Counted from the stretch's first letter, positions 327 to 7,016 are shown. The stretch: 7,016 nucleotides of DNA from a virus (IMGVR_UViG_2724679058_000006), one strand, 5' to 3'. Made by a program: numbers and translations. The notes: generated by a model from the letters alone, not told the origin.

Positions 327-347
327 GGCAACTTGTAATAAACATTA

Positions 348-1097
348 TCAGTCAATTGTTTTGTTTATTCCATCTGTGACGCCGATTATTTTCTCAAAAT
401 AATGAGATGGCGTGACACCATAATAATCTTTAAATGCACATATGAAATATGAAGTACTGTTATAGCCACATTTCTGGGCTACGACATTGATAGAATAAGA
501 GTTTGAAGTTATGAGTTTTTTTGCATACCTCATCCTAGTATCTCTCAATATTTCAGTAAATGACGTTCCTTCATCCCTTAATCTTTTTTTTATTAAACTT
601 TCACTCGTATAAATCAATTCCGCAATATCTTTTAAATGCCATTGCCGCTCAATATTAAAACTGATTATTCCAGTAATTTTACAGGTAAATGTATTTATAT
701 TTGTTAGTATAAATGAATTTACACTTTCGCGTTTTTTGAACATGGCAAGTAAGGATATACATAGTCTTTCTTTTAACCAAAGGGAGTGTGAGTCTGCTAT
801 TTTAATCCCTTCAAACAGAGAAAAAACAAGCGATAATGGAGGTTCCTCTTCAGCAATATAGCCATTCTTATCAAGAGTAAATTTGCCAGGCAGCTCATTA
901 TTCACGTCGATAAAAAAGGATAAACATGTTTTCTTATCTATATCAACAATTCTTAGTTTAGAGGGGCATACTGGTAACTCCCTTCTAATTTTGTCGCTTA
1001 CAATAAACAATGAATTTTTTTTGAACGAGATAACTCTCCTGTTTATAATTAAATCAAATGATTGACAGATGAAAACTACGGAGCAAACATAATCCAT
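348..1097 (-). CDS. appY: AraC/XylS-family transcriptional activator, AppY-like (249 aa)
   Basis: 249-aa ORF with a C-terminal AraC-type double helix-turn-helix (..[62 protein letters not shown]..). RBS AGGTG 4 nt upstream of the ATG. Low-GC gene next to prophage tail genes and a long AT-rich upstream region. The sequence matches my recollection of E. coli AppY starting [14 protein letters not shown]; this is not verifiable without a search. Confidence 0.75.
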
Positions 1098-1670
1098 CTT
1101 GCACCTATCATAAAATTAAAACAAGTTGATAGCAGTCAAATAACAACCAATTAAATACACAATCATAATCAGGATGATGTGCATTTATATTTTTATACAC
1201 AAAATTATAGTTTGCAAATTTTAATAAATTTCATTTAAGATTAAATTATTATATGTATATTGTTTTTTATTCTAACGTATTTCAAAGTTACATTTTTCAA
1301 CGCTTACTATACTTTTTATTAACATAAACTCACTACAACGCACCTGAAACCTCTTGCTATATATATGTCAACCGTTTGAATTTAAAATAAAAAGAGTATC
1401 ATTTTTACTTGCATTTCTTATCAAGTCACATTCAACAACAGTAAAAAAACATTATTAGAACCATTCAATTAACAAAAAACCAACATCCAGCTTGCTTAAT
1501 TTTTCTTTATTAAACGACATTGAAAATCAATTGATAAAATACATCTAAACAACCTTTTGGGGCGCAAAAGCATAACATCAAACAAACAAATAACACACCG
1601 AAAAAACTCACAATTAATAACCTATGATATACATACTGTTTATTATGGTTGAATAAGCCACTCGATATCT
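1098..1670. promoter_or_regulatory. Long AT-rich upstream/leader region of the AraC-family gene; probable xenogeneic-silencing (H-NS-type) target carrying the regulator's promoter(s)
   Basis: About 570 bp with no credible ORF on either strand and a very high A+T content with many A/T tracts, lying directly upstream of the minus-strand regulator. No promoter hexamers could be assigned confidently. Confidence 0.4.
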
Positions 1671-1772
1671 GGTGCTACGGAAGTGTCCACACGGTTTAGC
1701 AGCACCCGATACTTTTTCCAGGCTTCCAGCAACGAGTTTTCTTCCTCCGTTGCATATACAGCTCACCTTTTT

Positions 1773-2066
1773 TCACCCACGATTAACCAACAGCCAGACC
1801 AGCAGACACGCCACCACCGGCACAGCAAAATCCATCAGGCTTGCCACATCCCACGCGCGCGGATCAAAACCGCCCCACCACGGCATATTCATTCGCTTGC
1901 CATGCCCGAACATTTCGATCCAGCGATATTCTGCCTAGGTGTGTTCACGCGCAATGAAGAACGTACAACCGGCTATCGCCCCGTAAGCCCAGTTCCCGGT
2001 AAAAAGACCAATCAGTAGCTGCGCAGCCACAGCACAAAGCGCATGAAGGAAAGGTGTTATATCCAT
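1773..2066 (-). pseudogene. Small membrane protein gene (97 codons, two predicted transmembrane helices) interrupted by an in-frame amber codon at codon 44 (plus-strand cta at 1935..1937)
   Basis: Minus-strand ATG at 2064..2066 preceded by AGGA with a 5-nt spacer. Translation: MDITPFLHALCAVAAQLLIGLFTGNWAYGAIAGCTFFIAREHT-TAG-AEYRWIEMFGHGKRMNMPWWGGFDPRAWDVASLMDFAVPVVACLLVWLLVNRG*. Both halves are in the same frame and each contains one hydrophobic helix. The antisense plus-strand ORFs in the track translate to low-complexity Pro/His/Arg-rich sequence. Confidence 0.5.
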
Positions 2067-2079
2067 TTTCATCCTACCC

Positions 2080-2102
2080 AATAAAACGGGGCGCTCGGCC
2101 CC
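2080..2102 (-). terminator. Candidate rho-independent terminator after the S74 fiber gene (minus strand: GGGGCCGAGCGCCCC, then G and TTTTATT)
   Basis: 5-bp all-GC stem (GGGGC/GCCCC) with a 5-nt loop, followed on the minus strand by a U-rich tract. It sits between the stop at 2109..2111 and the next start at 2066. Confidence 0.45.
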
Positions 2103-2108
2103 TTAATA

Positions 2109-3149
2109 TTATTTAGACGCAAGCGCCGCCTCAATTGCAGATAATCTTTGTCTTAATTCTGCGTTTTCTTCTTCCAGTGCTGTTATCCTGTCGTCTGACT
2201 CTCTGGCTACCTGAACAAGCAAACCCGTTACGCCTGAGTAATCAACGGTATAGTATCTTTCTCCCTCTTCTCCATCAGACCCATTGTCCCCGCTCTTGTA
2301 CTTTATTGTGCTACCAACTGATTCAGGGATTGCATTAAGTGCCTCTTGCGCAATAACGCCAGCATAAGGCATACCATTAGACTTGAGACGGTAAGTATAC
2401 CCATTCATTAATCTGATGCGCTCAGTGGCATTATCAATAACCTGAATGTTTTCTTTAAGATCTCTGTCCGACACCTGGTCGAATGATGTAGCCTTGCATG
2501 ACCCGTTTATCTCAAGCTGATAGGTTTTATCTGGGTTCCTTTGTGCATAAAACAAAAAAAGCCCGCCATCATCCCTAATTTCATAAACAACTGGACGACT
2601 GGAATTTCCCCATAATAACGTCGACACACCAGAATACGCCGTACCTTGCGTGTTTAGTGTCATGGTCGACCCGTGATTAGCATATTTGATCTGCAATGAG
2701 TCTGTATTATCAAACTTAATAAGCGCGTTACTTCCCCGCACACCATACGACATGAGACAGTTCCCCATCTTAAGGTAACCATCACTGCCTGGAAAAATTA
2801 AAGTTCCTCCGTAAAGATCACTAAAGTCCCAAAAGATACCTTTTGTCCCGTTATGTGTGACGATCCTCGTCATTGTATCTTTAGTACCATCAATATTTTT
2901 TCTGGTATATATGTCACTATAAGCGTTTTCCGTTTCACCAGTCTTATTTGACAAATGCAGCTTACCGCTGAATATAGTTCCAGTTGTTGGCAATGTTTTT
3001 TGATCATAGATTACATTGCAATAACCATTCCATGTTGTTTTATTGTCTACATAAGATTTTGTTGCGTAGTTTCCTTGATCGGTTTTTAATTTACTAACAT
3101 CCGATTTTAGCGTTTTGATGTCATCAGGAATTACTGTTTTTGTAACCAT
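2109..3149 (-). CDS. Tail fiber/tailspike-like protein (346 aa) with C-terminal peptidase-S74 intramolecular chaperone (autoproteolytic) domain
   Basis: RBS GGAG 7 nt upstream of the ATG at 3147..3149, and only 12 nt downstream of the preceding ORF's stop. The C-terminal ~120 aa (residues ~227-346, nt 2112..2471) carries the S74 hallmarks: SDRDLKENI, then YRLKSNGMPYAGVIAQEALNAIPESV, then YYTVDYSGVTGLLVQVARE, then a terminal coiled coil ITALEEENAELRQRLSAIEAALASK. The N-terminal ~226 aa are Gly/Thr/Asn/Tyr-rich, typical of beta-rich fiber tips. Confidence 0.8.
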   Translation of the reverse strand: MVTKTVIPDDIKTLKSDVSKLKTDQGNYATKSYVDNKTTWNGYCNVIYDQKTLPTTGTIFSGKLHLSNKTGETENAYSDIYTRKNIDGTKDTMTRIVTHNGTKGIFWDFSDLYGGTLIFPGSDGYLKMGNCLMSYGVRGSNALIKFDNTDSLQIKYANHGSTMTLNTQGTAYSGVSTLLWGNSSRPVVYEIRDDGGLFLFYAQRNPDKTYQLEINGSCKATSFDQVSDRDLKENIQVIDNATERIRLMNGYTYRLKSNGMPYAGVIAQEALNAIPESVGSTIKYKSGDNGSDGEEGERYYTVDYSGVTGLLVQVARESDDRITALEEENAELRQRLSAIEAALASK

Positions 3150-3161
3150 TGTCTTACTCCA

Positions 3162-3431
3162 TTAAGCCCATGTCCTTACATGCTGATCTGTCGTAATGAA
3201 AGGCATTAAAGAAGATATGTTTTTACTGCTATCAACAATCCTCATGTTTACGAAAAAACCACCGCGATCAATGCCCGTACATCTTTCGTTTTCTGGCTCC
3301 TCGTAATCAATAATGCAGCCAATAACATCAACAAGAACCCCATTTTCTTCTTCAAGACTGAACAGGCCACTGTCATATACAATTGCGTTAAACTGTTCTC
3401 TGTTATCGAATCGTAATGTTATATCCCGCAT
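3162..3431 (-). CDS. Hypothetical small acidic protein (89 aa), translationally coupled to stf; candidate fiber assembly or adaptor factor
   Basis: Its ATG (3429..3431) overlaps the stf stop codon (3431..3433) in a TAATG arrangement. Its stop lies 12 nt before the next gene's RBS. No motif recognised; function unknown. Confidence 0.55.
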   Translation of the reverse strand: MRDITLRFDNREQFNAIVYDSGLFSLEEENGVLVDVIGCIIDYEEPENERCTGIDRGGFFVNMRIVDSSKNISSLMPFITTDQHVRTWA

Positions 3432-5789
3432 TATACGTATTCCTTAAGCTGCGTATCTGACAATGCTCTGTTCCAGAAACGGAGGTTTTTTATATGACCA
3501 TTAAGGTGTCGTAATCCTGTCGTCGTTTGCCCCCCGATTCGAATCACGGCTGCTTCACGAATATATTTCCATACTGTTTTGGTTTCAGTGCTTATATGCT
3601 TATTTGCAAATGAGCATGTCATGCCGTCAGCCTTAACCCTGAATCCCATAACGAGATCTCTTACTCCGCATGACTCATATACACGCCGGTTAGCCCCGCC
3701 TATATCGCAATACGAATAACCATCCTGACTGATAGTTCCAGAAGAACCAAACCCCATAATAAATGGGCCTCCGGACTGGTGATTTTCTGAATCAATGACA
3801 CGCGGTGCAGCATTATGAGAAATAAACCAGTTTTTATGGACTTCCACCATGAACGTAAAAGGCATGGTATACATATTTTTCATCAGCGGAAATTTACATA
3901 AATCTGATGCACGAGTCGCTGGCTCTGTTGTCGTTATGATAAAGGAAGTTGCACAAGCACCATACTCGAATTGCGGGGTGGTTACTTCTATCCAGTCACC
4001 TGTTGCAAAAGCCCCCACTGCTCTGTCGGCTGCAATTTGCAGCTGCGTACCAACCATTCCCCATTCTGGCAGACATTTCAGTGTTGCCTGAAAATATATC
4101 CATCCACTACCAGGGTCGATTTCAAAGTTTGCTGTTAATAGCTGGGCATTACCACCCGTAATTTGTAGTTCATGAGTCTGTAATGACAAATAGGCGTCAC
4201 AAAGGAAAGTGTATCCTTCCGAGTTATACCGTTCAAAACGGATACGTGCGCGAACATTGAGATCACTTCTTACCCTGAACGACGCGGTAACATACGGACC
4301 TTTACTGTACTGATCATCGCCAGTCACATCTATGCCTTTATTACCAGCAACTGTGCATATATTTCTCCCTGTTGTCGTTCCTGCTATGTCGCTTCCTACT
4401 GTGAAACGTCCATATTTAAACTCAAATTCATCTGTTGATGATGTTACAGATATACCACCGCTTTTATTCCACGCATCAGGATTAAAACTATTTACGAACA
4501 TGTTTGTTCGCTGATTCTCTATCAGCAAACCATATTTTTCAAAACGAGGAACGTTATTCCCTGCCACGGTAATATGCCCGGACTTATCAATATACGTTGC
4601 TGATGAAGCGCGGCTAAATTGGCATATGCCATTAACAGGCATTGTTATTTCATCACTGCCGATGGTTATTGTTTTATAGCCCGGGGCATACCCTGTTATC
4701 GCTTCCAGAGAATCATTCAAGGGTAGCCAGATATCAGGAAGCGGAGGGACTGAAGCAGGATCAGCGGCATCTTCTGCAATCCGGGCTGCATTCTCTGCTC
4801 TTGTTGCGGCTGACGTTGCTTCTATCTCGCTGGCTGCTGCTTTTGTTTCACTCGTCTTTGCGTTAGTTTCACTGGTTTTTGCAGCTTTTTGGCTATTAGC
4901 TGCCGCACTTGCAGAACCAGCTGCGGCACTCTCGCTTTGGGCCGCTGCATCCTGACTGTTTTTTTGCCGCAGTTTCGCTGGCTTTGGCATTCGTTTCGCT
5001 GGTCTTCGCTGCCGTCTGGCTGGACTTTGCGTTAGTTTCACTCGTCTTCGCAGCTTTCTGGCTGTTAGCCGCAGCAGTTGCTGATCCAGCTGCTGAAGTC
5101 GCAGAACCGGCTGCTGCGCTCTCGCTTTCAGCTGCTGCAGCCTGGCTATTTTTCGCCGCAGTTTCACTGGCTTTGGCATTCGTTTCGCTGGTTTTCGCTG
5201 CCGTCTGGCTGGACTTTGCGTTGGTTTCGCTCGTCTTTGCGGCTGTCTCGCTGTTTTTCGCGTTGGTTTCTGATTTTTTGGCTGCTGTCGCGGAGTTTGC
5301 CGATGCAGTCTGCGAGGACGCTGCCGCCTGTGCGCTGTTAGCTGCATTCGTTTCTGAGGTTTTCGCCGCGTTCTTCGATGATGCCGCTGCAGTTTCGGAT
5401 TTCTTTGCCACCGCTGCGCTCTGAGAGGCGGCTTCGGCGTTGCGTGCCGCTTCTTCCACCATTGCCTCAAAACGACGCAATGCCTCCGGCATGACATCAT
5501 CTTCCGTCATGGCACCGAGAAAATCATTCAGCGTACCTGGTCTGGAACCTTCATAGACGGTAATGGTTCCGGCATGTGAAGGCGGAAAACCTTCAACCAG
5601 CAGGGTGACGCTGTACTGGCCATACTCAACATCCATGCTGTAACGCCCGGCTTCATCCGGATTTTCAGAGGCCACCGTGTTCACCAGTACCGTGGTGCTG
5701 TTACGCTTTGCCTTCAGTTGAATAGTGCAGTTCTGTATTGGTTTTCCCGCACCATCTTTCAGCACACCTGAGATTTTTACTGCTGCCAT
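3431..5789 (-). CDS. stf: Side tail fiber protein Stf (~785 aa if contiguous): lambda-Stf-like N-terminus, Ala/Ser/Thr/Lys heptad-repeat shaft, non-lambda C-terminal LamG-like lectin-type domain. The frame is interrupted by a 1-nt insertion in an A7 tract (plus-strand T7 at 4959..4965), so it may be annotated as a pseudogene or as two fragments (4896..5795 and 3431..5500)
   Basis: N-terminus MAAVKISGVLKDGAGKPIQNCTIQLKAKRNSTTV..GRYSMDVEYGQYSV..GFPPSHAGTITVYE matches lambda Stf from memory. GGAG lies 5 nt upstream of the ATG at 5787..5789; the GTG at 5795 used in the ORF track is probably not the start. The two track ORFs (299 aa and 689 aa) are in adjacent frames and overlap. The first ~190 aa of the 689-aa ORF are Arg/Lys/Pro/Gln-rich out-of-frame translation of the repeats. 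Removing one A from the A7 run joins the frames seamlessly and gives ..ASETAAKNSQDAAAQSESAAAGSA.., parallel to the neighbouring repeat copy ..ASETAAKNSQAAAAESESAAAGSA... The C-terminus ..GHIKNLRFWNRALSDTQLKEYV resembles the conserved end of LamG_3/concanavalin-like domains. Confidence 0.8.
4881..5240. repeat. Imperfect tandem duplication (about 169 bp and 191 bp copies) inside stf; part of a longer low-complexity region (~4760..5405) encoding 7-residue Ala/Ser/Thr/Lys repeats (AAKTSET / NAKSSQT / NAKASET ...)
   Basis: Direct comparison of 4881..5049 with 5050..5240: shared blocks gcagcttt[t/c]tggct[a/g]ttagc ... gccgcagtttc[g/a]ctggctttggcattcgtttcgctggt[c/t]ttcgctgccgtctggctggactttgcgtt[a/g]gtttc[a/g]ctcgtctt. 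Copy 1 lacks ~21 bp present in copy 2 and has one extra T in its T-run. Confidence 0.7.
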
Positions 5790-5799
5790 ATCCACTCCA

Positions 5800-5827
5800 C
5801 AAAAAAGCCCGCCTGAACCGGCGGGCT
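5800..5827 (-). terminator. Candidate rho-independent terminator after lom (minus strand: AGCCCGCC GGTTCA GGCGGGCT then TTTTTT)
   Basis: 8-bp GC-rich stem (plus 5806..5813 pairs with 5820..5827), 6-nt loop, followed on the minus strand by T6 (plus A6 at 5801..5806). Lies between the lom stop (5854) and the stf RBS. Confidence 0.6.
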
Positions 5828-5853
5828 GTCATAACACTGTGTTACCTGGCTAA

Positions 5854-6453
5854 TCAGAATTTATAACCGACACCCACGATGAAACCGTCAGTGCGCCAGT
5901 CGCCACTGCCGGAGCCTTCATAAGCAATATCAATGGCCACGGATTCGGTCGGGTTAAACTGCACGCCAGCTCCCCACGCCAGAGACGTGTTGCTGTGGCG
6001 ATCGTCATCACTTCCGGTCAGCACATCGTGCGTTTTCCCCTTGTTGTCAGTTACGCGGAGATAATCCCCGGAGAACGTCGAAACACGGCTGTAAGCCACA
6101 CCTGCCATCGCATAAGCACTGAACCATTCATTCACGCGTACAGATGGCCCCGCCATCATGCTGAACCAGCGGTTACGCACTGAATCTTCATGCCAGCGGG
6201 TATCGCTGTAATGCGTTTTTTGCTCATCTTTGGCATTGGCATAACTGAATGACGTCACCAGCCCCAGCGTGTCCGTAAATTCATAACGGTATTTCACGTT
6301 AATGCCCTTCAGGTCATCACTGCCTGGCATATCAGTATAGGTCTGAAGATACCCGGCGCTTAGTGTGGACTGATGCTCTGCTGCGCTCGCTGGCGTACCA
6401 GCGGCAACCAGCCAGACTACTGCGGACAGAATAACAGCACATAATTTACGCAT
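5854..6453 (-). CDS. lom: Lom-like outer membrane protein (Ail/Lom/PagC family beta-barrel), 199 aa with signal peptide
   Basis: N-terminal signal peptide MRKLCAVILSAVVWLVAAGTPASA. C-terminus ..IDIAYEGSGSGDWRTDGFIVGVGYKF is identical in character to lambda Lom as recalled. KGINVKYRYE and AYAMAGVA motifs are shared with lambda Lom. RBS GAGAGG upstream of the ATG at 6451..6453. Confidence 0.9.
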   Translation of the reverse strand: MRKLCAVILSAVVWLVAAGTPASAAEHQSTLSAGYLQTYTDMPGSDDLKGINVKYRYEFTDTLGLVTSFSYANAKDEQKTHYSDTRWHEDSVRNRWFSMMAGPSVRVNEWFSAYAMAGVAYSRVSTFSGDYLRVTDNKGKTHDVLTGSDDDRHSNTSLAWGAGVQFNPTESVAIDIAYEGSGSGDWRTDGFIVGVGYKF

Positions 6454-6474
6454 AATTACCTCTCGCTTTTCTGC

Positions 6475-6502
6475 AATAAAAAAGGCGTCATTTCTGACGC
6501 CC
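6475..6502 (-). terminator. Candidate rho-independent terminator after J (minus strand: GGCGTCA GAAA TGACGCC then TTTTTTATT)
   Basis: 7-bp stem (plus 6484..6490 pairs with 6495..6501), 4-nt loop, followed on the minus strand by a U-tract (plus aaaaaa 6478..6483). Lies 19 nt after the J stop. Confidence 0.6.
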
Positions 6503-6520
6503 GTATTGGGGTTATAAAAT

Positions 6521-7016
6521 TCAGCTGATACTGATGCCTGCGGTGGCTTTCTTCATCACCACAACCAGCAAATCGCTGATACTTGCTGTGGGATACCAGC
6601 CATTTACCAGCCATGCCGATACAGAAAATTCCAGTGTCATGACACCACTGCCTGCAGGCATATCAATAACACCCGTATATATCAGCGTATTATCCAGAGC
6701 CGTTCGGTTATAAATTTCAGCACCGTTTTTTCGTACTATCAGACGGCATGAGGAGTAGATATCAGTATGATCTTGCTCATGTTTAGCGCCACTGAATGCC
6801 ACCGCCGGGATAACAATTTGCCGGTCAAACGGCTGATCGTCATAAACCCTGACGGTAATGGTTCCTGATGGCCACCGCTCCGGTGCACGGGAGTCCCGGG
6901 GGAAAGCTTTGCCCACCGTTTTAACGAGATCGCCTTCAATCTGGTTCGCGGACAGTTTTCCCAGAACCCGGCAGTTCTCGTTAATCGTGACGTTGTTGAG
7001 CGTCCCGGAGTTCGCA
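6521..7016 (-). CDS. J: Tail tip host-specificity protein J (central tail fiber), C-terminal 165 codons; gene continues beyond the right edge of the window
   Basis: The frame is open to the window edge. Translation ..[151 protein letters not shown] matches the lambda J C-terminus from memory. The GTG at 6916 used by the ORF track is an internal Val. Confidence 0.9.

Follow-up and report, generated by a model that had tools for sequence, protein, structure and literature searches.

Laboratory lambda (PaPa) is the closest described counterpart of the locus analysed here. Its side tail fibre gene, stf, carries a frameshift, and the phage has no side fibres, plates normally and adsorbs more slowly (PMC12617516). 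Compared with Ur-lambda, a one-base difference leaves the two ends of the PaPa gene in different frames, as separate N-terminal and C-terminal ORFs (orf401/orf314). Similar lesions have been recovered by deliberately selecting lytically growing phage for low adsorption: frameshifts accounted for 15 of the 19 stf mutants selected, and every indel but one lay in a short homonucleotide run (Gallet, Shao and Wang 2009, PMC2762979). Indels at such runs, arising by replication slippage, were the main route to stf knockout, and loss of Stf can benefit a phage in dense or structured habitats (PMC2762979).

Overlapping frames that meet at an A-rich heptamer are also found at programmed sites, including dnaX (A-AAA-AAG), the A-runs of IS elements and the tail chaperone G/GT of lambda. 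A-rich runs are known slippery sites (PMC1851650), and heptamers of the A-AAA-AAA type favour a −1 shift (compare PMC1851650). No slippage of E. coli RNA polymerase was detected on runs of fewer than 8 A, nor was rescue by deletion seen on any poly(A) tested (PMC6260861).

We analysed a 7,016-nucleotide stretch of viral DNA (the window), numbered from its first letter, which contains a broken copy of a lambda-type stf. The window resembles PaPa in the gene family, in the J-lom-stf position and in having its N- and C-terminal ORFs put out of frame with each other by one base. As in PaPa, the lesion is a single-base indel and the intact ancestral allele is extant in relatives; by analogy, a fibreless but viable phage adsorbing through J would be expected (PMC12617516, PMC2762979). 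The two differ in that the window lesion adds one base (+1) to an A run in the Ala-rich shaft repeats, and in that it affects another stf allele, one that encodes 785 aa, ends in a C-terminal domain of another type and has genes for proteins of 89 aa and 346 aa after it instead of tfa. A further difference is that the window lesion may not exist in the organism. With the selected mutants of Gallet et al. the window shares an indel at a short mononucleotide run, of the kind produced by replication slippage, whereas its stf belongs to a resident prophage, bears no mark of selection and represents a single event.

The stf gene is divided between two frames

The N-terminal domain and the gene neighbourhood identify the broken gene as stf, the side tail fibre gene, within a lambda-like prophage. 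Residues 3–132 of its product form the prophage tail fibre domain PF08400 (E = 4.7e-67), and residues 3–95 match PDB entry 9e7m ('Tail fiber protein'), in which residues 1–94 are the Ur-lambda Stf collar domain (PMC12617516). Upstream on the same, minus strand lie lom (5854–6453), which encodes an Ail/Lom outer-membrane protein (PF06316, E = 1e-126) and directly precedes stf as in lambda, and the 3′ end of gene J (6521–6916), which encodes the C-terminal receptor-binding domain of the central tail fibre (PF12421) and runs past the window end. The identical order of J, lom and stf is annotated in relatives and phages. At the C-terminus of the stf product there is a weak match to Laminin_G_3.

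From its ATG at 5789 the stf frame runs on the minus strand to a stop at 4896–4898, giving a 297-aa product (4896–5789) that ends in ..ETAAKKQSGCSGPKRECRSWFCKCGS and comprises the PF08400 collar, a portion of the Ala-rich repeat shaft and, at its end, 21 aa read out of frame. The break falls at codons 276–277, where the coding strand reads ..GAA ACT GCG GCA AAA AAA CAG TCA GGA.. and has seven A (A7; window 4965–4959, T7 on the plus strand), one more than in relatives. The remaining 509 codons, N277 to V785, and the stop codon (3431–4960, minus strand) lie in the +1 frame, which is open from 5500 to 3431 and encodes what remains of the shaft, followed by the C-terminal distal part; in the A7 sequence these codons cannot be reached from the start codon.

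Owing to the extra A, codons beyond 276 are read in a shifted frame, and translation ends 21 codons on. The window product has 276 aa in common with the intact protein, after which a frameshifted tail (..KQSGCSGPK) stands where the wild-type frame has the junction peptide ..ASETAAKNSQDAAAQSESAAAGSASAAANSQK. In all, 509 aa are lost, so the 560 aa given for the C-terminal part in the original prediction is about 50 too high. That prediction was otherwise accurate about the lesion: the gene is stf, the run of seven A lies at 4959–4965, one A is in excess of an ancestral six (A6), and rescue would be in the +1 direction. The two frames that it described, one stopping at 4896–4898 and the other open from 5500 to 3431, are both seen.

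The run lies in the second copy of a tandem duplication of 189 nt, or 63 codons (4911–5255, minus strand; 1.8 copies, 87% identity). At the equivalent site the first copy has GCG AAA AAT AGC, within GCGGCGAAAAATAGCCAGG, and reads AAKNSQ. As proposed from this upstream copy, deleting one A from the run restores that reading and gives ..ASETAAKNSQDAAAQ.., which is exactly the protein of relatives with A6. More widely, the shaft region (4780–5400, minus strand) is rich in Ala, Ser, Thr and Lys and is made of 21-, 42- and 189-nt repeats.

In the repeat region the coding strand contains 8.5% T, and the +1 frame is free of stops for about 690 codons. The openness of this frame from 5500 follows from the scarcity of T, which makes stop codons rare there. 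We considered the +1 ORF from 5500 as an overlapping gene and rejected it, since the T-poor repeats explain why it is open and the 180 upstream codons are no evidence of coding. The general lesson is that a long open alternative frame in T-poor repeats does not show dual coding.

Similarity to the stf genes of many phages (2G7b, ev207, Tritos, HannyBb, PhiR46_1 and PhiR49_1) ends at about window position 4898 (stf query position 892). This point is a mosaic joint between a common collar-and-repeat part and an exchangeable distal part, and it coincides with the premature stop by chance.

Relatives have six A and an intact gene

Complete E. coli chromosomes, for example those of FDAARGOS_497 and FUJ80154, match window positions 327–7016 with no mismatches and one gap, and these relatives read A6. 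Against L001 and L002 the sole gap in 6,690 aligned columns is in the A run. The remaining part, positions 1–326, is identical to an IS1 copy in strain EC11 (326/326). Apart from the extra A, all 7,015 bases are identical to other genomes, which bears out the earlier statement that no further disabling mutations lie downstream.

Full-length, near-identical copies are present in 37 of 5,426 complete E. coli genomes. The A is the only difference in 19 of these copies; another 7 have one further mismatch, and the rest have two to six more differences. That the lone gap against 19 otherwise identical copies lies in the run shows that the break relative to relatives is real and not an artefact of reading. 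The suggestion of cryptic prophage decay, by contrast, was overstated, as the lesion is single and private and the segment is otherwise identical to copies with intact genes.

With A6, stf is a single ORF of 785 aa. PGAP annotates it as intact in EC11 and isolate 648 (WP_023909117.1), and the A6 protein matches phrog_1419 from end to end (1–793/793). The isolated, plaque-forming phages PhiR11_1, PhiR55_1 and PhiR47_1 have copies that are 97–98.6% identical, each annotated as a single CDS, 'side tail fiber protein'. Comparison of the tract length in related prophages, which had been put forward as a check, gave 6 nt at the run-equivalent position in all 12 relatives fetched. The codons at this position vary: close copies have GCA AAA AAC, PhiR55_1 and 2G7b have GCG AAA AAC, and Tritos has GCG AAA AGC. 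Collar, shaft and distal part are encoded in one continuous ORF in every relative with 6 nt here and in two frames in the window. These comparisons show that A6, encoding a single 785-aa Stf, is both ancestral and universal.

RefSeq/PGAP treats the intact A6 gene differently from genome to genome, as in L001 (4112–6469, equivalent to window 3431–5789) and also in L002 and L013–L015. Some A6 genomes have an N-terminal piece labelled 'pseudo, missing C-terminus' together with a 659-aa or 403-aa 'phage head spike fiber domain-containing protein', others have 2 kb left unannotated, and in yet others the CDS is whole, at 785 aa. Annotation in pieces can make relatives seem broken. We rejected it as a sign that stf is broken in them, as both pieces lie in one frame with no stop between them.

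The A7 allele is a singleton in the collections searched

We searched the 5,426 complete E. coli genomes by megablast with 41-mers centred on the run, a length at which seeds form only where the run length matches. The A6 control 41-mer was found in 59 genomes and the A7 41-mer in none, and the A5 and A8 41-mers likewise had no match among these genomes. Exact pattern scans for A7, with 41-nt and 26-nt patterns, showed it to be absent from GTDB representative genomes, IMG/VR and JGI metagenomes. A6 is present on 5 IMG/VR contigs, and an exact protein look-up placed the intact 785-aa protein on 792 contigs.

The truncated product, with either an ATG or a GTG start, is absent from 15 billion proteins and from 153 billion gene positions. 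Exact look-up of six possible C-terminal products returned only the 403-aa form with an internal start. We set this form aside as uninformative about A7, because intact genes are the source of its annotation. Within these collections the A7 allele is a singleton.

The run does not behave as a recoding site or a contingency tract

Given these results, A7 is almost certainly a private, non-programmed change from an ancestral A6. Two kinds of function might nonetheless be imagined for it, and even when all functional readings are taken together they have a very slight probability. One is recoding, in which A7 would give full-length Stf at a set low level, through a +1/−2 ribosomal frameshift on GCA-AAA-AAA-C or through RNA polymerase dropping one A. 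As at the programmed sites, an A-rich heptamer joins overlapping frames and, as in lambda G/GT, it does so in a phage tail gene. In addition, tRNA-Lys is sterically able to re-pair perfectly one base forward in the run and the product would be wild-type AKNSQ, the junction peptide of full-length Stf from an A7 template being ..ETAAKNSQDAAAQ.. in this case.

Unlike the programmed sites, however, the junction in the window is unconserved: all homologues keep the frame, with 6 nt at this site, and in the functional relatives PhiR55_1, 2G7b and Tritos other bases break up the run. Rescue needs a +1 shift, whereas the efficient shift at A-AAA-AAA is −1, which here leads into a frame that stops 45 codons later. 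The +1 route is without a slow A-site codon, the next codon being AAA. By sequence, no Shine-Dalgarno-like element is evident just upstream of the run, and folding of the downstream RNA gives no sign of a stimulatory structure (z = −0.79, no different from shuffled sequence). Transcriptional rescue would require one A to drop from the mRNA-sense A7, and the run is below the published threshold of 8 A (PMC6260861). The locus thus has none of the features of programmed frameshifting or slippage, namely a conserved site, a suitable motif with stimulators and a sufficient run length, and we consider recoding highly improbable.

A weaker form of the same idea is a real but leaky A7, in which a +1 slip of tRNA-Lys or loss of an A by the polymerase would yield a few percent of full-length Stf beside the 297-aa collar-only fragment. 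Were this so, virions would have few or no side fibres, and the run would provide one-step reversible tuning of the lambdoid adsorption rate. We give it an even smaller chance than recoding at a set level.

The other kind of function is phase variation, in which the run length would flip often and switch the side fibres of the phage population on or off. A homopolymer within a host-range gene would suit such a role, as would the advantage that loss of Stf can confer in some habitats (PMC2762979). Against this, the allele has A6 wherever it was found, in 59 complete genomes and 5 viral contigs, and there is no polymorphism of run length, with A5, A7 and A8 absent among the complete genomes searched. 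The run is also unconserved between stf alleles and is only 6–7 nt long. Characterised contingency tracts typically exceed this length. We attach scarcely any probability to phase variation, on a par with the leaky allele.

Of the three alternatives in the original prediction, a consensus error and a genuine inactivating mutation both stand. The third, a usefully slippage-prone tract, is unsupported: the two-frame layout is unconserved, the run is interrupted, variants with A5, A7 or A8 are lacking among the complete genomes, the −1 frame is dead and the run is shorter than 8 A (PMC6260861).

Genuine mutation and consensus error are closely balanced

The choice between a genuine mutation and a consensus error is close to even. 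We lean slightly towards a genuine, recent replication-slippage mutation, to which we assign an even chance. An error of sequencing, assembly or polishing, which would leave the organism itself with A6 and an undamaged stf and confine the extra A to the deposited consensus, is a serious alternative at somewhat less than an even chance. One homopolymer +1 is the sole difference from 19 otherwise identical genome copies, and A7 is a singleton that is absent, like its product, from all collections searched. A 7-kb match that is 100% identical but for the length of one homopolymer is the pattern classically left by errors of sequencing or consensus calling. The window also extends 326 nt into an IS1 copy, hinting at a long-read or older long-read-like assembly. 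Assemblies that run into an IS hint at data of this type, in which homopolymer miscalls are the main residual error.

The lesion therefore looks like a homopolymer consensus error in being a single +1 in a run of 6–7 nt that gives an apparent frameshift in an otherwise perfect match. It differs in that no other homopolymer in the window is affected, longer ones included: the remaining 22 runs of at least 6 nt, among them two 8-mers, which are more error-prone, and three 7-mers, agree with relatives.

Inherited homopolymer indels, moreover, occur in the same segment of other genomes. The T8 run of appY (584–591) is T7 in CH10508, 500010 and isolate 648, in which PGAP calls appY 'frameshifted'. 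These genomes share linked SNPs, at 6339 in all three and at 5986/6076/6082 in two of the three, and the appY T8-to-T7 indel is therefore inherited and real. Its presence in three relatives weakens an argument that we had considered for error, based on prior odds and the rarity of real indels. Indel rates in E. coli climb exponentially with run length (PMC8510543).

Two observations on homopolymers concern other genomes. CH10508, 500010 and isolate 648 constitute a natural appY knockout lineage. The A7 run at 1443–1449 is A6 in ST648 only (NZ_CP008697), a singleton in a non-coding or pseudogene stretch.

If the A7 of stf is real, it is a natural counterpart of the fibreless allele of laboratory lambda, and stf calls for annotation as a frameshifted pseudogene; if the extra A is an artefact, the record has to be shortened by one base. 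A7 is either a fresh instance of a well-known type of lesion or an artefact. Its significance beyond annotation is small, and new biology is indicated in neither case.

Predicted effect on the side fibres

Under the preferred reading, a genuine mutation, A6 would have become A7 by replication slippage in the stf of a lambda-like prophage next to appY. The 297-aa product would retain the tail-docking collar domain and lose 509 residues, probably including the distal receptor-binding part. By analogy with laboratory lambda (PaPa), virions would lack working side fibres and adsorb via J alone, and they may be viable. Any full-length Stf arising from +1 slippage on GCA-AAA-AAA-C, or from transcriptional loss of an A, would probably be incidental and very low in amount. 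The premature stop might also have a polar effect on the downstream genes for the 89-aa and 346-aa proteins.

The region downstream of stf

Downstream of stf are the 89-aa gene, the 346-aa fibre gene, two pseudogene remnants, appY (348–1097) and a piece of IS1 (1–326; the 3′ part, PF03400), and in relatives ompT lies beyond appY. The 89-aa gene (3162–3431, minus strand; phrog_1361), of unknown function, overlaps the stf stop codon. The 346-aa tail fibre protein (2109–3149, minus strand; phrog_4563) has a C-terminal S74 intramolecular chaperone domain (PF13884). No tfa chaperone gene follows stf, its place being taken by the phrog_1361 gene and the separate S74 fibre protein (2109–3431), an arrangement suggestive of a side fibre module that is branched or made of two parts.

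The pseudogene remnants, at 1643–1753 and 1773–2066, come from a tail fibre assembly gene that lacks its N-terminus and a hypothetical gene interrupted by an internal stop. They sit between the fibre genes and appY. Both are identical in every relative, and they therefore represent older decay, separate from the A7 event.

IS1 adjoins the rest of the window 21 nt past the appY stop (326/327). This IS1-appY junction occurs in one piece in no complete E. coli genome, EC11 having IS1 inside appY. The junction could serve as a lineage marker with which to identify sister isolates.
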